Shown: positions 8,220 to 64,000 of the stretch, piece by piece
Layout: each line of letters opens with the position of its first letter
Numbering within the stretch: the first letter of the stretch is position 1
Source: Chloroflexota bacterium
Lineage (GTDB): Bacteria > Chloroflexota > Limnocylindria > QHBO01
DNA: 64,000 nt
Reading direction: 5' to 3'
NCBI GenBank assembly: GCA_013816405.1
Contig: JACDEL010000005.1
Location: 3,210 to 67,209, forward strand
Made by a program: the position numbers and the translations under genes
The notes under the pieces: generated by a model
Seen by the model: only the letters and a program-made list of their open reading frames with translations
What the model was told of the DNA's origin: nothing
The model's database searches: none

Positions 8220-8327
8220 GGACCGACCCTAGCGACAACCTCGTTACCACCCACTTACCGCTTGCCCGCGCTGCTACCCTCTCCCGAGGATCAGGCGCCC
8301 ACCTGAGCCACACCTTGCGGGGGACCG

Positions 8328-8545
8328 ATGACTGACTTCGCCACCAACGTCCTCTATTAGTGCGACAACCTCGACATCCTGCGTCGCTACCTGCCCGATG
8401 CCAGCGTCGACCTGGTCTACCTCGACCCGCCCTTCAACTCGAATCGCGACTACAACGTCATCTTCCGCGACGAGTCGGGCAACGCGACCGATGCCCAGCT
8501 GCTGGCCTTCGAGGACACCTGGCACTGGGGCCCATCGGCCGAGGC
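8328..8545 (+). pseudogene. N-terminal remnant of an N6/N4 DNA methyltransferase (DPPF motif) with an in-frame TAG
   Basis: MTDFATNVLY*CDNLDILRRYLPDASVDLVYLDPPFNSNRDYNVIFRDESGNATDAQLLAFEDTWHWGPS. This is the canonical start of PF01555-type methylases (LYxGDNL, DLIYLDPPF, DTWxW). The rest of the enzyme is absent. Confidence 0.75.
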
Positions 8546-8727
8546 GACTGACTCCAGCGGTGGCGGTGCTAGGAGTAGGCCCCGCGAATCAACTGTCACT
8601 GGGCGTCGAGGGTTGCCGCGACGCTCATGAACCGATGACCGATGGTGTCATGCGTCGGTCCGGAGCGCGGGCGCAGTCCAGCATACCGGCAGCCCGCCTA
8701 GTGGCTGCTTTCCTAGCCTCAACGCGC

Positions 8728-51331: not shown

Positions 51332-52227
51332 TGGCCATGAGTCCCATGAAGAGAGGTTTGTCGATCGGCTTGGCCATAGGGATGGCCTTTCTGACTGGTT
51401 CTCCTGTTCAGGGAGCTCGGCCAACGGGGCCAACGGACATTACAGCCACCGCAGCGGGTGAGAAGATCGCATCCGATGCAGCGATGCGTTGGACGAACGC
51501 AGGAATTCCAACGTCCGCATCCGACGTCATCGTTCTGGACTTAGGCGCTGACGGTATGCTCGTCGCCCCGCGAAACGCCACAGGCCTTGCAGGAGGCGTC
51601 GAGCTGAGAGCAGATGGCAGTGTCATCACATCCGGGGCAGCATTGGCAGCGCCGGATGGCTCTGGCAGCGGGTCGTTGAACTCGAGCATGACCAATACCG
51701 AAGCTACTACCGCCGCTGTACCGACGTGGGGCTTCTGGAGCGGGAGTTGCTTCAGTCGGCTGAACACATCGGCGGGGTGGATGGACACCTGCACGTCGTT
51801 CTACAAGCTGTTCAATGATGTGGACGGGGGCTACGACTATTGGGACCTGCACCTCTATTCAAGCGCCTACGCCTACAACAACCTGGGCTACTACCTAACC
51901 CAGTCGTATGTGCGGAGCCTCAGGTCGGGCGGCGCAACTCAGTACTGGGTGGACTGGAGCCTCAAATCTGTTCACGACACCGGGTGTCAGCAAGACTCTC
52001 TCAGTGTCTCAGCACTCGGATTCGGCTTGGGCTTCGGCCATACGTTCTGTGAAAAGTGGAGCCCGTATAAGTATGCCGATGCCGGGCACATGAACGACAC
52101 GTGGACAAAGGGGTTCTTCGCGCCGACGGGAATGCGAGAGAACGCGCTCACGGTGGTGGTGAAGGTTCCACAGGGAGGCATTCCGAGCTACTCCATCGGA
52201 TACAGCTTCGGAACTGCGCACATCTGA
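51331..52227 (+). CDS. Secreted protein of unknown function
   Basis: The signal peptide is MAMSPMKRGLSIGLAIGMAFLTGSPVQGA. The mature part is Cys- and aromatic-rich. The start overlaps the previous stop. Confidence 0.65.
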   Translation: MAMSPMKRGLSIGLAIGMAFLTGSPVQGARPTGPTDITATAAGEKIASDAAMRWTNAGIPTSASDVIVLDLGADGMLVAPRNATGLAGGVELRADGSVITSGAALAAPDGSGSGSLNSSMTNTEATTAAVPTWGFWSGSCFSRLNTSAGWMDTCTSFYKLFNDVDGGYDYWDLHLYSSAYAYNNLGYYLTQSYVRSLRSGGATQYWVDWSLKSVHDTGCQQDSLSVSALGFGLGFGHTFCEKWSPYKYADAGHMNDTWTKGFFAPTGMRENALTVVVKVPQGGIPSYSIGYSFGTAHI

Positions 52228-52715
52228 TGTCTCGCGGGCCAGTGCTATTGCTCGGAGCCCTCGGAGGGGTGCTTGTTACCTCTTGCTCGCTTCTCACATC
52301 TCACCCTGCGCCGGGAACGCGCATTCCGACCGGTGTTGAGGTAAGCGGGCTGCTCACCCAAGCAGTGGACCTTGTTCAGGGCGGTGACTTAGACGGGTTA
52401 TGCGAGCTCGGAGGGGGCAATTGCCAGCGAATTCTGGAAGAGAACCGAGACGCGGTGCCGACCGACGCGCCAACGATCCTTGGTAGCTCGGTGCTTCATC
52501 CCGAGCAACACGGGGACGCGTGGAGCGTCGGCGGCCGGATCCTGGAGGTATGCGGCACAGACGGTCTAGGCGATCCTTACCGAACGGCCATGCTCTTCTT
52601 CTTCAACGAGAACGACCAGCTGCGTATAACGGAGCCGGTCTATTGGTCGAGGATGCGCATCGCGACTGGATCGATCGCCGAACCAAATATGCAGCAGGCA
52701 GGCGAAGGTTGCTAG
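52227..52715 (+). CDS. Lipoprotein of unknown function
   Basis: ATG 52227 shares one nt with the upstream TGA. MSRGPVLLLGALGGVLVTSC contains a lipobox-like VTSC. Confidence 0.65.
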   Translation: MSRGPVLLLGALGGVLVTSCSLLTSHPAPGTRIPTGVEVSGLLTQAVDLVQGGDLDGLCELGGGNCQRILEENRDAVPTDAPTILGSSVLHPEQHGDAWSVGGRILEVCGTDGLGDPYRTAMLFFFNENDQLRITEPVYWSRMRIATGSIAEPNMQQAGEGC

Positions 52716-53095
52716 CCTCCGAAGGAGACTCGTTCCCCAGATGGGGCAATTCCGTGCTCTGCAGTCTGAGCTGGACGCAATCTCGGTTCTACTACCTCTC
52801 TTGGGGTGCACAGCTAGCCGTGCCGTTCCCCGAAATTCATGCGACGAGCGGTTGCGAATGCGTCACAATGGAAGATGATCGTGCTCTACGCCTACCTCTA
52901 CGTCCCAGGCGCGACGAACATGGACATATCCGTCAGCTTGACCGAATCAGCAGCGTGCACTCAGAGACCGCCATGCAGCGGGATAAACAGCACGGCCTCC
53001 GCCGGCTGGACGCAGCTCTACAACCGCCTTGAACAGTGACGGTCGTAGCGCCCAATCGCTTAATTGGGCGTCGGACATTCGGTACGGGTACTGAG

Positions 53096-53707
53096 ATGAG
53101 GACGTCGATGTCTCGACACCGCTGGAGGTTCGGTGCGCGTGGGCGGGTGGCTCTGGTGGCTGCGGGCGTCGTGGCTGTCGTGTCGGTCGCGGTGGCCGTA
53201 GGCGCTGGTCCGCGTGATGGGTTGCCTCCTGCCAAACAAGCCGCTCTCGATCAGGCTGCCGCTGACCAAGCGAAAGGCCTCGCCAATCCGGCCCCCAAGC
53301 CAACGAGCGACTCCCCTCAAGTGATTCCGCTTGGTCCTCAGGCTCCGACGCCCCAATTCCCCGGCGTGCAGACGGTCAACCCCGGCGCGGGCGTAATCAT
53401 TGAGTCAAGTGCGGCACCACCTGGGGAAAGAACGCGGTCTGGATCAACCTCTGGCAGGAGCAAGGGGAATCGCACGCAATAGGCGTGTACGCTGGGGGGG
53501 GTCGCCGATGATCCAACCCAGGGTCTCGTCGTGTGGGTTCGGAGCGGCCCAGCGCCGGAATTTTCCGACGTCGTGGGTCAAGAGATTCTGACCCCCCGGC
53601 GTGCAGGGCCCGTACACGTCGTGGCTGCTAACGGTGAGGTTCTTACACTGCTCGCGGCGGATGGAACCAGCTTCACTTTCGACGCGAGCACTGGCGTATT
53701 TCAATAA
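53096..53707 (+). pseudogene. Membrane-anchored/secreted protein gene with two apparent frame disruptions (one at a G8 tract)
   Basis: Frame 2 reads MRTSMSRHRWRFGARGRVALVAAGVVAVVSVAVAVG...QTVNPGAGVIIE. Protein-like sequence then continues in frame 1 from 53404 (VKCGTTWGKNAVWINLWQEQGESHAIGVYAGGG). It returns to frame 2 after GGGGGGGG (53494-53501): VADDPTQGLVVWVRSGPAPEFSDVVGQEILTPRRAGPVHVVAANGEVLTLLAADGTSFTFDASTGVFQ*. Confidence 0.5.
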
Positions 53708-53754
53708 GTCCGAACGTTCGAGCACCTGGGTCCGCCCCCGCCCGGGAGTCGTCG

Positions 53755-54810
53755 ATGGCTCACCTCCCGTCCCTGATTCACCGCCCGCTGGCAGGCTGGT
53801 TGGCTGTCCTGCTCGTTATCTTCGCAGCCTCTTGCGCCGCCGCACCATACCCAACAGCCACGTCCACCTTCACGGATAGTGTTGCGTCCCCCTCTCTCGC
53901 GCCAACCTTACCGCCGGCAGGCCGCATCGTCCGCACCATCCCCGTGACCGTGAATCTCCTCGGAGCTCTGAGTCTTGCGGAAGGCGATGGCAGCATCTGG
54001 GTGGCCGTGAGCGGCTTGCCAAGTGGTCGGGTACTGCGCATCGATGCTCAGTCCGGTCGCCAAATCGCTGAGATCCCAGTCGGTTGGGCTCCTGCGGGAC
54101 TAACCGTCGTCGGGAATGAGGTCTGGGTCGCCGATACAATCGGTGACGGTTCGCAGGCCACAGCCAAACAGAACCTCGTCGAGGTCATCGATGCGCAACG
54201 CAACGCGGTCGTTCGCCACTATGAGGTTCCTGTACCCGAGGACCTTGCCCCGCTCGACGGGGCCGTATGGGTCGTTAGTGCCGACGGGAGTGACCACAGC
54301 ACCATCCGACGCCTTGATGACGGAATTCTGTCTCGGTCATACACCCTCCCGGAACCTGGCGCGACGAGGCTCGTGGTGGCGAACCAGATACTGTGGGCCG
54401 CAACATGGTCGGGCTCTGACACGACGCACCTTTGGGGAATCGACGTGGCACGAGCCCAGATTCCGACGCCAATCTCGGTTGGGGGGAACGTCTCCGCTTT
54501 GGCGACTGACGGTTCAGATTTGTATCTCGCAGGATCGCCCGCGATCGGACTCGTCTCGGAGATCTCTCCGGTGAGCCAGGCACTGGTCGCAACGTCGCGA
54601 TCGTTCGATGCATTACAGGCGATCAGCGCGACATCAACCGCGGTGTGGGTGGCCACAGGCTTGGGCGAGCTTTACGAGTTGTCCCATGGACATCTCACGG
54701 AGGTGGGTCGGTTAGCGAATCTCGGCGGCACTCCCTCACAGCTGCTCGTCAACGACCACGTTTGGATCATGACTGATGCTGGTCTAGTCGAGGTCCAGCC
54801 GACCCCCTAA
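53755..54810 (+). CDS. Lipoprotein with beta-propeller-like repeats
   Basis: The signal/lipobox is WLAVLLVIFAASC. There are repeated (V/I)WVA... blades: SIWVAVSG, EVWVADT, AVWVVSAD, ILWAATW, DLYLAGS, AVWVATG and HVWIMTD. Confidence 0.7.
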   Translation: MAHLPSLIHRPLAGWLAVLLVIFAASCAAAPYPTATSTFTDSVASPSLAPTLPPAGRIVRTIPVTVNLLGALSLAEGDGSIWVAVSGLPSGRVLRIDAQSGRQIAEIPVGWAPAGLTVVGNEVWVADTIGDGSQATAKQNLVEVIDAQRNAVVRHYEVPVPEDLAPLDGAVWVVSADGSDHSTIRRLDDGILSRSYTLPEPGATRLVVANQILWAATWSGSDTTHLWGIDVARAQIPTPISVGGNVSALATDGSDLYLAGSPAIGLVSEISPVSQALVATSRSFDALQAISATSTAVWVATGLGELYELSHGHLTEVGRLANLGGTPSQLLVNDHVWIMTDAGLVEVQPTP

Positions 54811-54818
54811 CCGCCCGC

Positions 54819-54848
54819 GAGCGGGCCGAGCGCCTCGGCCCGCTCTTT
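54819..54848 (+). terminator. Intrinsic terminator: 12-bp GC-rich stem GAGCGGGCCGAG-cgc-CTCGGCCCGCTC followed by TTT
   Basis: The stem is 54819-54830 / 54834-54845 and the T-run is 54846-54848. It lies 9 nt after the lipoprotein stop codon (54808-54810), between convergent genes. Confidence 0.7.
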
Positions 54849-54947
54849 ACGCGGAGACGTGGAACTTGGAGAGCGCCGGCCGACCAGGCCGAGCAGTCAG
54901 TCGACCCCCTCTCCCTATACCCCCGGTTGATTCACACTCCCCGCGAG

Positions 54948-56497
54948 TCACTTCGAGACCGCCATGCTACGAAGCGACTCCCACCAGCGCGGATGCGGGG
55001 TCCGCAGCCCTCGCCTGACGAGCGCGCAGTAGCCGACCGACAGCCCGGTCACCGCCGCCAACTTGCGCACCGGCACCCCTTGGATCAGCGGCAGGATTTC
55101 ATGCCGAAAGCTGTCGGGATCTGACGGCTGCCTATGGGATCCATCCCAAGCCAGCGCCTCAACACGTCGTCGTCGCTGCACGATTCGCTGCTTCGCTCTA
55201 GCTTCGCGGCTCGCCGCGGGATCGCCGCCGATCGCCCGCAGGTCGGCACGAATCGCGCGAGCTGCAGCTAGGCCAGCGAAACTTGCCTTGAGTCTGACTT
55301 CAGTCCGGCAGCGATCGCACCATGAACGGCCCGCAGTAACCCCGACGCCGCAATTCCGACAGATCGGTTGTGCCACGCTCGGGTCCCGGCGCCCCACTGC
55401 ACGTTTGGTCGCGTTCGGAATGGGTCCCGCCCGGCCGAGCGGTTCGCCTGGGTGAGCATGGTCGGCAGCTGACCGACCCGGGAACCCGGGCCGTCGGCGA
55501 AAGCCTGAGCGACGCGTTCAACGATAGGTGCCAAGAGGCGCGCCCAATGCGGTGCCGTTTCTGCCAGACGGTGAGTCAGCGGAGGCAGGACGCGACATAC
55601 GCCCTGGCGAGTCTCGTAGAAGTCATCTGCGCGGAAGACCGACCTGCGCAGGAGCTCGAGAATGTAGGCGTCAACGTCGGGGCGTATCGCCTCCATCACG
55701 TTGAGCGTCAACGAATCGCGTGACTTCTGGTCGGCGTGCAGCACGCCGAGACCCGGGTCCAACCCGGCGGCAAGGCACGCCAAGCGAGCCTCGGCCTCGA
55801 GAATTGCATACAGATAGTTGAGCAGCGCGTGTGCGGGGGTCGCGGCGAGCCGCGCGTTGCCCGTCAGCGGCGATCGGCGGCGACCGACCGTCCGCCAGTG
55901 CTCGGGCGCATTCGAGGCATCGGCCCGGGTCCATGGCATCGGGACCGAGGCCCACGCGCTCCAGTAGCCGTTGGCGGCTGCCGCCTCAACGATCATCAGT
56001 CTTCAGGCGAGTTGGCTTACCTCGAGCTCCGGCAGCAGCCGCTCGATGGTTTCGACGACATCCGCACAATTAGACAGGTCGGTCGCCACGCGCGCCTGGC
56101 CAGAGAGCTTGCGGGTCAACAGATCGCGAGCGATCGAAAGCCCATGCCCTGTGCCCCAGGCCAGACTCTGGGCTCGTCGCAGGCGCGGGTCGTTCAGACC
56201 GAAGTTTCCTGAGGTGGCCAGGATCCGCCCATCGGGATCAAGGTGGATAAAGGGGACCCCGACGTCTGCCAGCCAACGCATTGCGTCGAGCGTCACGAAG
56301 CCGGTGTGCCCGAGCAGAACGAGTCGGCGGATGCCGTTCGTAGCACGACTGAATCGACTCTCTCAACGGAGCGGGCCGACGCCGTCGCAGACAACCAAGC
56401 GCCCGCGTTCGAGATGCACTCGAATCCCGTAGCCGTCCACTACGCAGACGCCGGACTTGCTGACGGTGATGGGGGTCGTTGTAGGCTGGGTTTGCAT
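54948..56497 (-). pseudogene. cas1: Cas1-like ('Cas1-solo' type) gene with two in-frame TGA codons, one frameshift, and a C-terminal Zn-ribbon/HTH extension
   Basis: ATG 56497 (GGAAGGAG at 56508-56515). One frame reads MQTQPTTTPITVSKSGVCVVDGYGIRVHLERGRLVVCDGVGPLR*ESRF...GIRRLVLLGHTGFVTLDAMRWLADVGVPFIHLDPDGRILATS...LPELEVSQLA*RLMIVEAAAANGYWSAW...AATPAHALLNYLYAILEAEARLACLAAGLDPGLGVLHADQKSRDSLTLNVMEAIRPDVD... The TGAs are at 56363-56365 and 56003-56005. A frameshift near 55420 leads into ...QPICRNCGVGVTAGRSWCDRC...VRKLAAVTGLSVGYCALVRRG (ORF 54948..55397). Confidence 0.7.
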
Positions 56498-57116
56498 GGG
56501 AAGCTAACTCCTTCCTGTGCCACTCCCCCGAGCCGTTACCAGCGGCCGCGGGGGCTAATCTCGCTAGTTCGCCGGGCTCGATCCGATGACGTCGAGAACC
56601 GCGACCATCAGCACCCGCTCTTCGAGCGGGATGCCTCCCAGATCGACGTTTGCGTCCTTGGCATAGAGCGGCAGGATGTCGCGCGCCCAGGCATACCAGC
56701 CGCTGGTGCGAGCCACGACGGTTTCCTCGCCAGCAGTTTGCAGTAGGGCCGCTGTCTAATCACCCTAGCTCGGGCGGCGCCCTGGTTCGTGCAGGGCGGC
56801 CAAAGGGTCCCCTCCGTATTACATCTGCCCACCTAGAAGCGCAGCGATCGTCCGAGCACAAGGCCACAAGATGTAGTGGTGCACCTTCGAGGCGCTGACA
56901 CCGAGGTTGTCGAACACTCGTAATTGTACAGAGGACGGCGGGATTCAAGTCAGGTCTGACCCACTCCATCTTCGCCCGCATGCGGCGAGCCTAGCACCGC
57001 CTAGCGGCCTTCCGACAAGGCTGCTGCGGCGGATGGAGGCAGTGGTACGCTCGCGGCACAAGGGTTGGGATGGCCGGTCCGCGGAGTGATTGGGGGAAGA
57101 CGGAGGGAGCCAACTC

Positions 57117-59066
57117 GTGCGACTGGTTTCGTTGCGTCTCACGGGTTACCGCAGGTTCCTCGATGCACGCGTCTCGCTCGATGCGCCTGTCGTCGCAATC
57201 GTCGGGCCGAACCAGGCAGGCAAAAGCAGCCTCCTCAGTGCTCTTCGGGCCCTGGAGACCGATGATCCGATTTCCGAACGCGATCTCACTCGCAGCGCTC
57301 CGCCTGCGCCCGGCTCAGTGGTTATCGAGGCGCGATACCGACTGGACGCGGAAGCAATACAGGCTTTGGCGGACCACGGCATCAGCAAGCCGCCTCTCTT
57401 CCTCATCGAGCGGAAGAAGCACGAGGGTTCACTCGAGTACACAACTGAGCCGCCGTTAGTCAGGGATCGGGCCCTTCGTCTTCGGACGGTGCCCCGCTTA
57501 CGGAAGGCCTCGCAAAGCCTTTGGGCCAAAGGTCTCGCGGCTATCGAAACGGCGCCTCGTCCTGAGACGCCTGAAGGCGTCTCGACCTCAACGCCGGCTG
57601 AAGCACGGATTTCTGAACTAGCCGTGGCGCTCGATTCAAAGGCGGAGAGCCTACCTACTTCGACGCTCGATCTAATCGATCAGGTCCGGGACCATCTGGC
57701 AGGCGGCGGAGGGAACTCCAAGCGCGAAGAGTTGAGGAACAGTCTTGCGGCGTTGTCACTGACTGAGCGCGAGCTGCACCCCAGTCGTGTCGCGACCAAG
57801 CTTCTCCAAGACCACGTCCCAAGTTATCTGGATTTCGGTAGCGGCGCCCGCATGCTCGAGCCTGAATACGATTTCGCGACTCTCGATCTAACTGAGCCTC
57901 CAGACGCACTCGTCAACCTCTGCTCGGTTGCCGGGCTGGACCTTGGTGCCCTGCAGGGAATTCTGTCTACCACAGACCCAGCCGAGACCGTGAATCTGCT
58001 AGACCCGGCCAATGCGACTCTCGCGTCGGTATTCGGTCAATTCTGGACGCGCGCCAAGTTCTCCTTGCGGCTTGAGCGGGATGGGAGTCGCCTCCACATC
58101 CTCACCGACCGGAAGCCGGGGAAATGGGCGTCAATAGCCGAATCCAGCGACGGAATGCGCGCCTTCGTTGCACTGATGGTATTTGCACATCAAAACCCAT
58201 CAACTCCCCGACCAGTGCTGCTTGTCGACGAGGCGGAGACGCACCTCCACTACGAAGCTCAGGCCGACCTTGTACGCGTTTTTGAGTCGCAGGACGCGGC
58301 AGGGCAGGTGATCTATACGACGCATTCGGCGGGGTGCCTTCCCCAGGACTTGGGACGCGGAGTGAGGGTCGTGGGTCGGATTCCAGAGACGGACACAAGC
58401 GAGATTCGGTCATCGTTTTGGACACTTGGGCCCGGCTTCTCGCCGCTCGTCATTGCGATGGGAGCGAGCGCACTTGCCTTCACACCCACACGATTCGAGG
58501 TAATCGGAGAAGGAGGGTCGGAGACGTTGCTGCTGCCGACCCTTCTTCGCGAGGCGACAGGTCTAGAGAGGCTCGCCTTTCAGGTAGCTCCGGGTCTAGC
58601 GAATGCTTCGTTCGCCCAACTGAAGGAGTTGGGTCTGGAGGCTGCTCGGGTCGCCTATCTTGTCGACAGCGATCAGAGTGGGCGGGACAAGCGGGCTGCC
58701 TATCTCGCTGAGGGCATTCCCCCGAAGTTGGTCGTCTTCCTCGGGGCGTCTAGCACGAGCAACTTCGCTATTGAGGACTTCCTCGACGAAGAGGTGTACC
58801 TCGCCGCTGTGAACCTGGAGAGCGCCGGGCGCCACGACCCTGCATATGAGATCCCCTCAGGCCAACTCCCGCGACGGGGGCGTGCCAAATGGGTAAAGGC
58901 GCGGCATGCTGCGAAAAGACTCCCAACCCTGAGTAAGACTGAGGTGGCTGCCAGGGCTCTTGACATCGCAGTCGGGAGGCTGCTGTCGGACCCAACTCGT
59001 CACAAGACGCTTCGGGCGGTCCATGGGAAGCTGCTTGCTGCGTTGGGGGTTGATGAGACAACGTAG
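57117..59066 (+). CDS. OLD-family nuclease: ABC-type ATPase fused to a Toprim domain (single-gene; could alternatively be a fused PARIS-like AriA-AriB)
   Basis: GTG 57117 has GGAGGGAG at 57102-57109. Motifs are LVSLRLTGYRRF, Walker A IVGPNQAGKSSLL, signature SSDGMRAF, Walker B VLLVDEAETHLH, and Toprim FEVIGEGGSETLLL ... VAYLVDSDQSGRDK. Confidence 0.85.
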   Translation: MRLVSLRLTGYRRFLDARVSLDAPVVAIVGPNQAGKSSLLSALRALETDDPISERDLTRSAPPAPGSVVIEARYRLDAEAIQALADHGISKPPLFLIERKKHEGSLEYTTEPPLVRDRALRLRTVPRLRKASQSLWAKGLAAIETAPRPETPEGVSTSTPAEARISELAVALDSKAESLPTSTLDLIDQVRDHLAGGGGNSKREELRNSLAALSLTERELHPSRVATKLLQDHVPSYLDFGSGARMLEPEYDFATLDLTEPPDALVNLCSVAGLDLGALQGILSTTDPAETVNLLDPANATLASVFGQFWTRAKFSLRLERDGSRLHILTDRKPGKWASIAESSDGMRAFVALMVFAHQNPSTPRPVLLVDEAETHLHYEAQADLVRVFESQDAAGQVIYTTHSAGCLPQDLGRGVRVVGRIPETDTSEIRSSFWTLGPGFSPLVIAMGASALAFTPTRFEVIGEGGSETLLLPTLLREATGLERLAFQVAPGLANASFAQLKELGLEAARVAYLVDSDQSGRDKRAAYLAEGIPPKLVVFLGASSTSNFAIEDFLDEEVYLAAVNLESAGRHDPAYEIPSGQLPRRGRAKWVKARHAAKRLPTLSKTEVAARALDIAVGRLLSDPTRHKTLRAVHGKLLAALGVDETT

Positions 59067-59418
59067 TCCGTTATACCTTCCTGAGGCATTCAGGCCTCAC
59101 CCGCATGACGCGAGCCTAGTATCCGTCCGCCCCAACGTCGCGACCAGGGCCTCTATCTCACCCCGCAGCCGATCAGCTGACGGCCTGTCCGGGTTCGCGT
59201 CGTCTGAATGAGGTCCTCTCCTTTCTCCCTCGAAGATTGAGGCATGTCGCTCGTTGAGAAGCTCCACCCCCGGCCGTTCACGGCGATGAGTCCGAAGATG
59301 CGCCCCCGACTGCAGCGAGCTGTTCCACTAGGCATTCGCCCAAAACTGGCGCATTCCTTACACACTTCCTCACACATTAGGTCTTGATCTCCAGCCGCCA
59401 CGGTCGTAGCGTAGCGGC

Positions 59419-59727
59419 ATGCAACCGGTCGTCACAACCCGCGAACTCCGACGGGACATCCTGGATCTGGCAGAGCGCGCCGTGGCGGGCGAGGCCTTTG
59501 TGGTGATGCGGCATGGCCGTCCGGTCGCCCTGCTCCGCAAGGCCCGCCCTGAGGAGGATCTGCGTCGGGTGCCGATCGAAACGTTCCGGCGCCACATCGC
59601 CCGTTCGTTGCGCCAAGCGCAGCAGCGCCCCCATCTCATCACCTGGCACGGGCGTGACTCGGTCGTACTGGCTCCCGTGCCGTCCGAGCTCATGGAGCAG
59701 CAGCCGGATTCGGAGGAAGAACTGTGA
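59419..59727 (+). CDS. Protein made of two Phd/YefM-like antitoxin-fold repeats
   Basis: Repeat 1 is VVTTRELRRDILDLAERAVAGEAFVVMRHGRPVALL. Repeat 2 is VPIETFRRHIARSLRQAQQRPHLITWHGRDSVVLAPV. Confidence 0.6.
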   Translation: MQPVVTTRELRRDILDLAERAVAGEAFVVMRHGRPVALLRKARPEEDLRRVPIETFRRHIARSLRQAQQRPHLITWHGRDSVVLAPVPSELMEQQPDSEEEL

Positions 59728-60326
59728 CCCTGCGCCGGGACATCCAAGCGCTCGGCATGCGAGAAGCCCGCGAGAAGTGGCGGTCGATTGTGACGCACGT
59801 GATCGATGGCCAGCCCATCCTGATCCTGCGCGACCTCCAGCCGTCAGCGGTCATGCTGCGCTTTGACGAGGTGCAGCGCTGGCGCCGCATCGAGGAGAGC
59901 CTTTCGGCGCTCCACGGCCTCGAGATCTACCCCGAGCTGGCGCGCAGCACGGCCGAGCTGGCGGCGCTCGTTCGCGGACACGAACGGGCGAGTGTCGCCG
60001 CCCTCCGCGGCCTGGCACGCCAGAGCCGCGACATTTTGGGTGCGCTGCGGACGATGGCGGTCAGCGATGTGCCACGTGGGTTCGCCGGCTTACTCGACGA
60101 GATCGAATCGGGACGGCTGATGACCATCGTCGTCAAGAAACAGCTGGCGGTGACGCTCGTCTCACCGCGCGAGTACGACCGCCTGCGAAGCCTGACGCTG
60201 GCAGCGACCTGGTTCCGGACCGCTGGCCTTGACCTGGAGACGGCCGAACCCGACCAGATCAGCGCTTGGGTACGTGACTTCCGGGAGCGACCGGCGGCGG
60301 CGGCCTCCGAAGCGACGGGGGCCTGA
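59724..60326 (+). CDS. Second protein with two Phd/YefM-like repeats
   Basis: It overlaps the previous stop by 4 nt. The repeats are LGMREAREKWRSIVTHVIDGQPILILRDLQPSAVML and MAVSDVPRGFAGLLDEIESGRLMTIVVKKQLAVTLVSPREYDRL. Confidence 0.5.
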   Translation: MTLRRDIQALGMREAREKWRSIVTHVIDGQPILILRDLQPSAVMLRFDEVQRWRRIEESLSALHGLEIYPELARSTAELAALVRGHERASVAALRGLARQSRDILGALRTMAVSDVPRGFAGLLDEIESGRLMTIVVKKQLAVTLVSPREYDRLRSLTLAATWFRTAGLDLETAEPDQISAWVRDFRERPAAAASEATGA

Positions 60327-60337
60327 GGATCCGTCAC

Positions 60338-60721
60338 ATGACTCGTCACGTGCTGTCCGCGCACCGCCGGCTTCTGGCCAGCCTCGCAGGCGCTCTGCTG
60401 TGGCTGGTGGTCCTCGGGAGCCCTGCGTTCGGCGCCGACGTACCTCCCGGCGCGAAGGAGGCGCTGGCGCCGGTGATGCGCATGATTGGGACACTGGTGG
60501 CCATCGCCATCGGCCTGGGCATCGCCATGTGTGGCGCGGTCATCGTATGGGGCGGCATCGAGAAGACGATGGCCGGCGCCAACGCCGACGCCGAGCATCG
60601 AGCGCAGCGCCGGATTGCCAACGGCATCAGTGGCCTGCTGTGGATGATCGGCGCATCGGTCATTGTCGGGACCCTGACCGCCATCGCGGTCGCCTACGGC
60701 CTGATCGACAAGCCGTTCTGA
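60338..60721 (+). CDS. Small membrane protein with signal peptide and two TM helices (TrbC/VirB2 pilin-like topology)
   Basis: The signal is LLASLAGALLWLVVLGSPAFGA. The two hydrophobic helices are IGTLVAIAIGLGIAMCGAVIVWGG and GLLWMIGASVIVGTLTAIAVAYG. The call rests on topology only. Confidence 0.45.
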   Translation: MTRHVLSAHRRLLASLAGALLWLVVLGSPAFGADVPPGAKEALAPVMRMIGTLVAIAIGLGIAMCGAVIVWGGIEKTMAGANADAEHRAQRRIANGISGLLWMIGASVIVGTLTAIAVAYGLIDKPF

Positions 60722-60734
60722 GCCGGTCGATGCC

Positions 60735-61832
60735 ATGGCCTTCGCCGCCCGACTCCGCGCCGCACTCCCGCTGCCCAAGGACGAGGGTGACGCTCATCCG
60801 CACCTCTCGCGGGTCGCGCTGCTCTTCCTGGTGCTGGCGCTGGGCGGCCTCGGACTCGCCGTCGTGGGCAGGACGCCCACCGCGCCGGAGCGGCCGACTC
60901 CGGCGCTCATCGGGACCGAGGCCGCCCGCTTGCCGCGCGGCGAGCTGCCGCTCATCGGCGATCCGATCCGCGACCTGACGATCTGGTACGCGCAGCGCGT
61001 CAGCGACGCCAACCGCGCGGCGGTCGAGAACCTCAAGGGGAACTTTCTGACGCCGATCGACCCGCTGACCGATCAGGCCACCACCGACCTGTACGGCAAG
61101 ATGCTGGTCATCACCATCCCGCTGCTGACGCTCGGCGGGCTGATCCTGGGCTACCTGATCATGGTGGCGCGCACCAGCGGCGAATCGGCGTACGCGGTGC
61201 GCTCGGTCACGCCGCGTTTCGTGGTCGGGGCGGTGCTCTCGATCTGCGGCATCTTCGGCGTCAGCGTGCTGGCCCAGTTCGTGATCGCCACCGACCTGGC
61301 CATGGTCGGCGTCTCGGTCTCCCCCGCGCAGGTCGGCGGCGCCGAGCAGTGGCCGGCCGGCGGCGGCGTGTTCCTGGTGCTGCAGCGCGGCGGCTTCGAC
61401 CCGCGCATCGGCGAGGGGCCGGCCAACTGGAACTCGGGCGCCTGGCTCAGCTCCGGCCTGCTGGCGGCGGTGCTGATGACCTTCCTGCAGATGATGAACG
61501 CGGTGCTCGGCGCGGTGGAGCGCCTGCTGGTGCTGCTCGGCCCGATCTGCCTGGCCGCCTACGCCCTGCCGGCCACCCAGCGCCTGGCCAACCTGTGGCT
61601 GAAGCTGCTGTCCGCGGTGCTGGCGGTGCGCTTCGGCTGGGCGATCGTGTTCATCCTGTTCAGCCTGCAGGTGCCGCCGCACCTCAACGACGCATGGGTG
61701 CCGCTGAGCGTGGGCGACACCAACGCGCTGATCGGGCTGGCGGTGGGTGCCGCGGCGCTGATGCTGGTCCTGCCGCCGATCCTGGTCAACCTGGTCCTCA
61801 ACTCGCCCGGACCGCTGAGGGTCGAGCGGTGA
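60735..61832 (+). CDS. Polytopic membrane protein (VirB6/TrbL-like topology)
   Basis: 365 aa with at least 6 hydrophobic helices, in a secretion-gene context. The antisense ORF 60660..61904 is Arg/Gln/His-rich shadow. Confidence 0.5.
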   Translation: MAFAARLRAALPLPKDEGDAHPHLSRVALLFLVLALGGLGLAVVGRTPTAPERPTPALIGTEAARLPRGELPLIGDPIRDLTIWYAQRVSDANRAAVENLKGNFLTPIDPLTDQATTDLYGKMLVITIPLLTLGGLILGYLIMVARTSGESAYAVRSVTPRFVVGAVLSICGIFGVSVLAQFVIATDLAMVGVSVSPAQVGGAEQWPAGGGVFLVLQRGGFDPRIGEGPANWNSGAWLSSGLLAAVLMTFLQMMNAVLGAVERLLVLLGPICLAAYALPATQRLANLWLKLLSAVLAVRFGWAIVFILFSLQVPPHLNDAWVPLSVGDTNALIGLAVGAAALMLVLPPILVNLVLNSPGPLRVER

Positions 61833-63253
61833 ACCGCGACGGGCTGGTCGAGGTGCCCGAGAACGCGCTGCTCGAGGAGCGCATCGCGTTGGGGCTGACC
61901 GCACCGCAGCTGGGGATCGTCACCGGCGCGGTGCTCTTCGGCGCCGCGTTCAACCTGCTGCCGCTGTGGGCGCCCCTCAAGGTCATGCTGATCCTGCTCA
62001 TATCGGGCCCCGTCGCCCTGGCCGCGGTGTTGCCCGTCCGCGGCCAGCCCGCCTACCGCTGGCTGCTACGCGCGCTGCGCTACTGGCGCTCACCGAAGAT
62101 CTGGCGGCCGATGGTGGTGACTGCCGTCACCGCTAATTCACCGGCAGAAGCAGCCAGTAAGCCGCCAGTAAGCCACGATGTGGACGATAGCGCGGAGGTA
62201 GCCACAACAGGCCAACCGCCAGACGTTAGGCAGGCGACCGCATCCTCACCTGCCGAGGAGCGAGGGGCTATGGACGGCGCGCCGGCCCGGCTGCGGCTGA
62301 TCCGCCCGGACCAGTCCGGACCTGATCCGGACACGGCGGCTCTGAGGGAGGACCAGCAGCAGCGACCTCCCTCGGTCCCCTTCGTGCTCCTCGGCCCGCG
62401 CCTGGTGTGCTTCCTCTCCTTCGTCGGTGGCGTTGGCAAGACAACGCTGGCCGTCGAGACGGCGTCGTACGTCGCGGCGCACGCCCGCTATCGCACCCCC
62501 GAAGGCGAGACGCTTGGCGTCCGCGTCCTGCTCATCGACGCGGCGCGGCTCGCGGCAGCGGCTGGGCTGCGCCTGGGCCTTGACCCCGATGGCCTGTCGA
62601 AGGCGTGGACCTACCGCGACTGGGCGGATCCGCAGGCCGCGCTCGACGCCCGGGTGCAGAGCCGCCACCGCGTCGACGTGATCACGCTGCCACCCCATCC
62701 ACAGCTCATGGGACGGGAGCGGCCGGTCGCCGAGGACGTCGGGGACGAGTTCCGCGCGCCCGAGGCAGAAGCGTTGCTCAACGCGGCTCGCGGCGCTGCT
62801 TACCAGTTGGTGGTGGTCGACCTCGGTGGTCTGCTGGAGGACGGCCACCGGGTCCTGCTCAAGGAGGCGGCCGTGATCGTGGGCGTGGTGCGCCCGACGC
62901 TCGAGTCGCTGCCCGACGTGCTGCGCCTCGCCAATCATCTTCGCGAGGTCGGCTTGGGGAGGAAGCTGGTGCTGGTCGCCAACCAATGCGAGGACGACAC
63001 TGAGCTGCGCCGCTTTGCGCGCGAGGCTGACGTGCCCCTCATCGGCGCTGTTCCGCCAAGTCCGGCCTTCGTAGCGGCCGCAGACCGCCATGAACTCGCC
63101 TGGCGGGCCGATCCTCGACTCAGAGATGCGCTGCTGCCGATCGCGCGCACGGTGTGGCCGCTCGATTCGCTGGCGACGCAGCCGCGGGCCAATGGTTCCC
63201 TCGCCGGCTTGCTTCGGCGCGCGCTGAGCCGTGCCGGCAGGCACGACCGATGA
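61829..63253 (+). CDS. Fusion of a PrgI/VirB3-like membrane module with a CpaE/TadZ-type (MinD/ParA-family) P-loop ATPase domain
   Basis: GTG 61829 overlaps the previous stop (GTGA). The N-terminus is EERIALGLTAPQLGIVTGAVLFGAAFNLLPLWAPLKVMLILLISGPVALAAVL...YRWLLRALRYWRSPK (PrgI-like: fGLT.rQ). After a linker, the C-terminus is VCFLSFVGGVGKTTLAVETASYVAAH ... YQLVVVDLGG ... LVLVANQ. Confidence 0.65.
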   Translation: MNRDGLVEVPENALLEERIALGLTAPQLGIVTGAVLFGAAFNLLPLWAPLKVMLILLISGPVALAAVLPVRGQPAYRWLLRALRYWRSPKIWRPMVVTAVTANSPAEAASKPPVSHDVDDSAEVATTGQPPDVRQATASSPAEERGAMDGAPARLRLIRPDQSGPDPDTAALREDQQQRPPSVPFVLLGPRLVCFLSFVGGVGKTTLAVETASYVAAHARYRTPEGETLGVRVLLIDAARLAAAAGLRLGLDPDGLSKAWTYRDWADPQAALDARVQSRHRVDVITLPPHPQLMGRERPVAEDVGDEFRAPEAEALLNAARGAAYQLVVVDLGGLLEDGHRVLLKEAAVIVGVVRPTLESLPDVLRLANHLREVGLGRKLVLVANQCEDDTELRRFAREADVPLIGAVPPSPAFVAAADRHELAWRADPRLRDALLPIARTVWPLDSLATQPRANGSLAGLLRRALSRAGRHDR

Positions 63254-64000
63254 GGCCCGCCGGCGCTGTCCTCAGCAAGGCCACGCTCGGCAAGGTACGC
63301 CGCATGCTTGTGGCGCGACTGTCCCCCGAGGTGCTCAACCCGTTCGCGCGGAGTCCCGAGCACGATGCGCTCCTGCGCAACACGCTCGCCGAGATCTGCG
63401 CGGACCCCGAACTCGACTTGGCTCCCAGCCCGGCAGTGTTGGCGGAGATCGAGGCCGAGATCTGCGGCCTCGGTGCGTTGCAGCCGCTGGTCGACGACCC
63501 CGAGGTGGCCGACATCCTAGTCAACGCGCCGGACGCCATCTTCGTCGAGCGCTCCGGGCGCCTCGAGCAGACCGCTGTGCGGCTGAGCGGCACACGCGAG
63601 CTGATCGACCTCGCGGAGCGCATCGCTGCGCTGGCCGGGAGGGAACTGTCGGTCGCCCATCCGGTGGTCGACGCGCGCATGCCGGACGGCTCGCGGGTCA
63701 ACGCCGTGATCCCGCCGGTGGGCGGCCCGTACCTGTCGATCCGCAAGTTCAATCGCCTGCGGCTCGACCTCGTGCCGGGCGGCCACCATGGGCGCAGTTG
63801 GGTCGAGGCCGACGGCATGAGCGCCGAGCTGGCCGACTTCCTGATCGCCATGGTCCGCGCCCGCGCCAACCTCCTGGTGGCGGGCGAGACGGGCGCCGGC
63901 AAGACGACCCTGCTGCGCTCGCTGACCGACGCCTTCGCACCCGACGAGCGGGTTGGCGTGGTGGAGGACACCGCCGAGCTGGCGTTGGAGAACGCCAACC
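63250..64000 (+). CDS. CpaF/TadA/VirB11-family secretion ATPase, 5' part (runs off the right edge)
   Basis: Not in the ORF track because it has no stop in the window. ATG 63250 overlaps the previous stop (ATGA). My translation is ...LQPLVDDPEVADILVNAPDAIFVERSGRLEQTAVRLSGTRELIDLAERIAALAGRELSVAHPVVDARMPDGSRVNAVIPPVGGPYLSIRKF...NLLVAGETGAGKTTLLRSL. Confidence 0.85.
   Translation, partial: MRPAGAVLSKATLGKVRRMLVARLSPEVLNPFARSPEHDALLRNTLAEICADPELDLAPSPAVLAEIEAEICGLGALQPLVDDPEVADILVNAPDAIFVERSGRLEQTAVRLSGTRELIDLAERIAALAGRELSVAHPVVDARMPDGSRVNAVIPPVGGPYLSIRKFNRLRLDLVPGGHHGRSWVEADGMSAELADFLIAMVRARANLLVAGETGAGKTTLLRSLTDAFAPDERVGVVEDTAELALENAN

Follow-up and report, generated by a model that had tools for sequence, protein, structure and literature searches.

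A recently inactivated family-3-type casposase in a Chloroflexota genome, and relatives that probably home to sigma70 promoters

Casposons are self-copying transposons related to CRISPR. In the window, the 64,000-nucleotide stretch of DNA analysed here, a broken Cas1 homologue lies on the minus strand at 56497–54948, together with a gene stub, an ATPase gene and two casposon-like ends (Table 1). Read from the ATG at 56497, it matches PF01867 over residues 19–300 with an E-value of 1.2e-35 and scores 105 bits with TIGR00287, above that model's cut-off, while all CRISPR subtype models fall far below their own cut-offs. A first-pass annotation had described a Cas1-like frame of about 515 codons, broken by TGA codons at 56363 and 56003 and by a frameshift near 55420; we confirm the gene, its length (516 codons when read through) and both stops, at codons 45 and 165, and place the shift slightly downstream, at approximately 55400–55410. 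A Logan contig from the probable source run, which represents the same sample and is not independent, spans 52000–60000 in one piece with 0 differences, so the stops and the shift are not assembler errors. Two other runs, X2 and X3, contain almost none of this DNA and do not bear on the matter. Because both stops are TGA and a paralogue on contig C5 of this genome is shifted in the same linker, one could propose that the gene is alive, expressed through TGA read-through and a programmed shift, or that its breaks are assembly errors. We consider this exceedingly improbable, as a single transition would turn codon 45 into the arginine kept in 102 of 107 relatives, an invariant aspartate has been lost too, no slippery motif is visible, the second assembly agrees, and 128 of 166 relatives have a single open frame, with the shifts in the remaining ones scattered.

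Table 1. Features of the casposase gene and its surroundings, in window coordinates
Feature	Position	Strand	Remarks
Casposase pseudogene (Cas1 domain, Zn ribbon, XRE-type HTH)	54948..56497	-	516 codons read through; nests among polB-linked casposases
Nonsense codon 45, TGA	56363..56365	-	Arg in 102/107 relatives
Nonsense codon 165, TGA	56003..56005	-	Position variable among relatives
Frameshift, net +2/-1, in linker before Zn ribbon	55400..55410 (approx.)	-	Tail resumes in another frame and ends at 54948
Catalytic Glu171, intact	55985..55987	-	Invariant in 107/107 relatives
Catalytic His254, intact	55736..55738	-	Alignment with 107 full-length relatives
Asp266 to Asn, E. coli D218 equivalent, H+12 residue	55700..55702	-	Asp in 107/107 relatives
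Catalytic Glu269, intact	55691..55693	-	Alignment with 107 full-length relatives
Four-Cys Zn ribbon	55308..55361	-	Zn ribbon in 105/107 full-length relatives
XRE/Cro-type HTH domain	54972..55121	-	Model of relative P0002; moderate Z, top rows all XRE-like
Upstream-gene stub, 3' third; 5' part missing	56564..56746	-	53% over 58 aa, E 5.5e-16 (L008); E 2e-6 (L007)
Short module, extended -10-like box and ATG	56978..57023	-	Recurs near casposon ends; weak evidence alone
OLD/GajA/AriA-like ABC ATPase gene	57090..59066	+	Between upstream-gene stub and end A
Casposon end A, facing cas1; candidate left end	59103..59229	-	76% over 127 nt to L092 right end, E 2e-18
TSD-like 14-mer starting CTCAA	59228..59241	-	In register with end A; no -10 box outside
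Casposon end B, 24 nt past cas1 stop, facing away from cas1	54877..54923	-	77% over 47 nt from L004 TIR base 1, E 1.3e-4
Possible shortened TSD remnant before end B (weak)	54924..54930	-	Like C89 TSD minus 6 nt

All four catalytic residues (E, H, D, E) are invariant among the 107 relatives, and the window copy retains three of them, with D266N as the fourth. The triad E171/H254/E269 is spaced as are E162/H232/E247 of the Methanosarcina mazei casposase (PMC6977970). It had been suggested earlier that a metal-binding Asp was replaced; the Asp-to-Asn change in the H...D...E block is present, but the residue is the equivalent of E. coli D218, which is required for nuclease activity (PMC4046053); the three metal ligands are other residues and remain intact. 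The gene is 71–73% identical to intact relatives, and only two of 77 conserved columns are altered with respect to the 107 full-length relatives (the Arg45 stop and Asp266 to Asn). For two stops arising under C-to-T/G-to-A decay, about 3.5 conserved-column changes would be expected and one was seen, a difference within chance; the two altered columns would thus fit recent neutral decay. The terminal branch of the window copy (0.21 in a quick maximum-likelihood tree) is no longer than those of intact relatives, which points to recent inactivation.

The C-terminal Zn ribbon and HTH noted in the first-pass annotation were both recovered. In the structure model of a relative (pLDDT 89.5), the tail is predicted to fold as a Zn ribbon followed by two long helices and an XRE/Cro-type HTH, and the helical domain finds its best structural matches exclusively among XRE/Cro HTHs (top Z 6.1, rmsd 3.0, 60 residues aligned). 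By profile and by fold alike, the top PDB match is 6opm, the M. mazei casposase, which comes ahead of A. fulgidus Cas1 by a narrow margin only. The tail was also considered as a mimic of sigma region 4; the fold search returned XRE/Cro HTHs, and the missing sigma-4 rows are not decisive.

A homologue search yielded at least 2,879 protein clusters, mostly of 505–550 aa and with identities reaching 73%, from Chloroflexota, Acidobacteriota, Actinomycetota and other taxa. Related loci were retrieved with an alignment as query (the single protein P0002 retrieved none), and among the 116 with at least 4 kb of upstream sequence, polB, a family B polymerase gene, was found in 102, identified by weak Pfam matches (E 0.002–0.005) together with DTET, DxxSMYP and DTDS motifs. 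Thirty complete elements of 8.9–20 kb were delimited by TIRs, whose GGG start was part of the search rule, and by 14-bp TSDs; 29 of them carry polB. In the first 24 of these, polB and a small conserved gene were each present in 23, and an HNH-like gene in most. In the typical layout, one end is followed by cargo, polB, HNH and a small HTH-like gene, all reversed; next come an upstream gene, cas1, more cargo and the other end. One locus departs from this layout (L077:10001-19332), having polB downstream of cas1 on the same strand, with a second casposase (L069) on the contig. Three polB-less casposases (L027, L032 and L155) form a long-branched trio, two of them from Acidimicrobiaceae and one, L032, broken; these could be non-autonomous or domesticated.

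In the quick tree the window row falls among three complete elements (L004, L008 and L092) and a polB-bearing locus (L091), far from two array-linked Cas1 rows, as an earlier proposal to place the gene in a Cas1 phylogeny had left to be seen; the inner branches have SH-aLRT values of 85–91, none starred, and the tree was built without named reference casposases of family 3 or any other. Among described systems, the closest likeness is to family 3, represented by AceAut-C1 of Ca. 'Acetothermum autotrophicum', whose casposase is a C-terminal fusion to Zn-binding and HTH domains (Krupovic et al. 2014, PMC4046053). The window gene has the same two domains at its C-terminus, with domain order and shared motifs judged by eye from the printed sequence, and its relatives resemble family 3 in having polB, HNH, TIRs, TSDs of 14–15 bp and intergenic insertion. 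Unlike family 3, the window copy is dead and lacks polB, HNH and paired ends, and the −35 box rule and CRISPR cargo of its relatives, described below, are absent from the literature that we searched. The M. mazei family 2 casposase (6opm; Hickman et al. 2020, PMC6977970) shares the E/H/E site, a C-terminal HTH (essential in M. mazei), a 14-bp TSD whose 5' motif is conserved, GGG-starting ends and tandem insertions; it differs in being archaeal, only about 23% identical and without a Zn ribbon, and in inserting at the 3' end of tRNA-Leu or at intergenic sites that bear a CGCA motif. We conclude that the window gene is very probably the inactivated integrase of a family-3, AceAut-C1-like casposon.

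Relics of such an element surround the gene. The stub at 56746–56564, directly before cas1, corresponds to the gene that precedes cas1 in the complete elements L008 and L007. Beyond it lies the ATPase gene, which by its position is probably cargo of the window element; similar AAA_15/21 cargo is also found inside L004 and L005. End A matches the TIR of L007 at 74–76% over about 50 nt from base 1 (E 4e-4 to 1e-3), which is cleaner TIR evidence than its longer match to L092, since the latter consists in part of a promoter-like module that is present elsewhere too. Short modules, each an extended −10-like box with the ATG of a small ORF (product starting MRVK) after it, recur at 56978–57023 and 59103–59125 of the window, on contigs C89, C12, C5 and C102 and in L092 and L004, and possibly act as inward leaderless promoters near casposon ends. 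End B is identical at 26 of 27 positions to an end on contig C89 and probably derives from an older, adjacent element; it fits a decayed tandem, since 19 of the 30 complete elements have a GGG-starting, older-end-like sequence on the flank opposite the promoter.

A check for the TIRs or TSD of a casposon remnant, suggested at the outset, was thus answered in part: two TIR-like ends with significant matches were found, but they share one strand and are not accompanied by a matching pair of TSDs. No partner TIR or TSD for either end was found in the genome, and with no inverted TIR pair and shared TSD enclosing the copy, the limits of the window element are placed by inference. Counting against our main reading, end B resembles the TIR of L004, the closest complete relative, yet faces the wrong way. 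The ends emerged by comparison with those of relatives; a plain repeat search of 44–64 kb returned chance-level repeats only and missed them, and a TIR weight matrix run over the window singled out neither. A candidate TIR site at 56765 (matrix score 12) was set aside, as two other window sites score higher. The window contains no tRNA, and no sigma70 consensus was found in 54600–59500.

Further along, at 59419–64000, two tandem Phd/YefM-domain genes with no evident toxin are followed by genes for a pilin-like protein, a membrane protein and CpaE/ParA-like and CpaF-like ATPases, with higher GC (0.70); this region probably marks the border of an integrative conjugative element. Elsewhere in the window, at 8262–8548, a segment of 100–215 nt has copies, 75–96% identical, on eight or more other contigs, with five of them on contig C37.

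The first-pass annotation had seen in this gene a 'Cas1-solo' lineage decaying inside a defence island. The decay, the role of Cas1 outside CRISPR, the casposase-like character and the defence-rich surroundings all stand; a stand-alone lineage of defence-associated integrases does not, given that the relatives lie with polB in casposons bounded by TIRs and TSDs. A domesticated Cas1 in the style of Cas1-solo group 1, put to use by the host or a defence island after loss of its casposon and only lately decaying, would account for the small number of conserved residues lost and for the defence-rich setting, and 14 of the 116 loci are indeed without polB. Many of those polB-less relatives, however, are themselves broken or shortened, the immediate neighbours vary between loci, casposon stubs flank the window gene, and no orthologue, one partial match aside, was found in 28 genomes of the same genus. 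The group 1 proteins of Methanomicrobiales likewise occur without CRISPR and with an incomplete catalytic set, but they are archaeal and vertically inherited and miss catalytic residues throughout, whereas the four residues are invariant in 107 relatives of the window gene and only the window copy is damaged. Domestication is therefore, in our view, very unlikely. The window gene is a recently dead family-3-type casposase, left from a gutted casposon in a defence-rich, mobile region; as such it is an already-known kind of element and, on its own, ordinary debris.

The rest of the genome (95% complete, 102 contigs) holds no match to Cas2 (PF09827 and PF09707) and no CRISPR array: a simple repeat scan, which did detect arrays in other loci, gave two three-copy matches, neither of them array-like. 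The earlier observation that neither cas2 nor an array accompanies the gene thus extends to the genome, which the taxa of close homologues suggest to be a MAG of a soil Chloroflexota. These absences bear on a further alternative, that the gene is an orphan cas1 of CRISPR adaptation whose operon and array were lost, in keeping with its TIGR00287 score above cut-off and with two relatives that lie directly before type I operons. CRISPR adaptation Cas1 (for example A. fulgidus 4n06) shares the fold and active site, but casposases integrate element ends rather than spacers, and the window gene, besides being without Cas2 or an array, has a Zn/HTH tail that CRISPR Cas1 lacks. Subtype models all score far below cut-off, the tree separates the gene from array-linked Cas1, the two operon-adjoining relatives lie within complete casposons, and the linkage to polB, TIRs and TSDs largely refutes this origin, which we regard as scarcely credible.

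No polB match was found in the window or the genome, and profiles of the HNH and conserved HTH genes from complete relatives match nothing in the genome. A search for intact paralogues, also proposed at first, came back empty: two further casposase copies are present, both broken, along with more casposon ends. At C5:19030-20572 (L089), a second pseudogene from a different branch carries two frameshifts, with an HTH-like gene upstream and no polB. At C12:9607-16914 (L090) lies the right arm of another casposon, comprising a cas1 3' stub with 86% DNA identity to the window HTH, three large convergent genes of 367, 983 and 872 aa, for which layout alone would suggest type III R-M, and a TIR with a perfect TSD motif about 170 nt upstream of a tRNA-Gly. 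At C89:12811-12970 (L109) there is a solo end whose TSD fits the consensus and lies on a −35-like box, with a 1087-aa gene downstream. Contig C89 was considered as a continuation of the window element and rejected, because suf housekeeping genes follow within 6 kb and the ends of the contigs show no overlap. No full copy of the window gene was found in 60 related genomes, a patchy distribution.

The complete relatives reveal a target preference. TCAA occupies TSD positions 2–5, in one orientation, in 22 of the first 24 elements, and reads TTGA(C) on the other strand. In 23 of the 30 elements a TAnnnT box follows 17–18 nt outward of TTGA(C), with none at other spacings from 8 to 29; among control TTGAC sites, such a box is present in 3% overall and in 10% where the site falls outside long ORFs. 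When elements sharing a target are collapsed by eye, about 19 of 26 retain the −10 box at 17–18 nt. Comparison of the insertion sites shows the target to be a 14-bp sequence whose last bases are the TTGAC of a sigma70 −35 box in the host. The genes downstream of these promoters differ (scpA, hrcA and Ni-SOD among them), and elements lie both ways relative to the target (16 against 14). The −10 signal would arise if the enzyme recognised the −10 box, and equally if only harmless insertions survived selection. Window end A is without the −10 box typical of targets, and the rule rests on the relatives rather than the window copy. Family-3 casposon targets have been given as 'intergenic' only (PMC4779613), and neither promoter targeting nor CRISPR cargo of casposons was found in the literature searched; an earlier description may nonetheless exist.

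Two of the complete relatives carry CRISPR modules. L007:833-20788 (ENA ERZ25039480 contig_112663) is a 20-kb casposon with a perfect 50-bp TIR and a perfect 14-bp TSD, in which cas1 is followed by type I-E cas3, cas8e, cas11, a cas7-cas5 fusion, cas6e and about 24 repeats; its polB is split into two ORFs. L025:369-13784 (JAIQEY010000065.1, Terriglobia) is a 13.4-kb casposon with a perfect 147-bp TIR, and directly behind its casposase come type I-C cas5c, cas8c, cas7, cas3 and a six-repeat array. In neither was a cas2-sized gene found at the usual place, nor a second cas1. At 29 and 32 nt, the repeats have canonical lengths that differ from the 14-bp TSD, so these are most likely captured interference modules; since the enzyme duplicates 14 bp, we think it quite unlikely that the casposase feeds spacers to the arrays. 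Taken with the target preference, it seems probable that this bacterial branch of casposons homes to sigma70 promoters, where it duplicates 14 bp up to and including the −35 box, and at times carries along a type I CRISPR interference module and array, the casposase being the sole Cas1.

These observations suggest a history for the window element. In an intact element, PolB would copy the casposon, as in the published model, and the casposase would join the GGG-starting ends to the target with a 14-nt stagger, as suggested by the TSDs and by biochemistry of the M. mazei and A. boonei enzymes. Insertion would leave the host promoter whole and pointing away from the element, and older ends would accumulate on the far side of the target. 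A deletion of several kb may then have taken polB and HNH together with the HTH gene and two thirds of the upstream gene, and no matching right end remains; it is only because the remainder of the element was deleted that the gene looks 'solo'. With the polymerase gone, cas1 would have drifted, acquiring two nonsense changes, the D-to-N substitution and the frameshift, although the order of deletion and decay may have differed, and the present copy would yield no working enzyme.

As a pseudogene, the window copy teaches little by itself beyond showing how a casposon remnant comes to be annotated as a 'lone cas1', and the interest lies instead in its relatives, with their promoter insertion and CRISPR cargo. 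A Cas1-type integrase that chooses −35 boxes would represent a safe-site strategy undescribed for casposons in the literature searched. The preference offers a direct test of what the casposase HTH, an essential domain (PMC6977970), recognises. Finally, in casposons that carry Cascade, Cas3 and an array, a casposase and an effector module stand side by side, as has been proposed for the way CRISPR adaptation arose, and that idea would become testable within one element.
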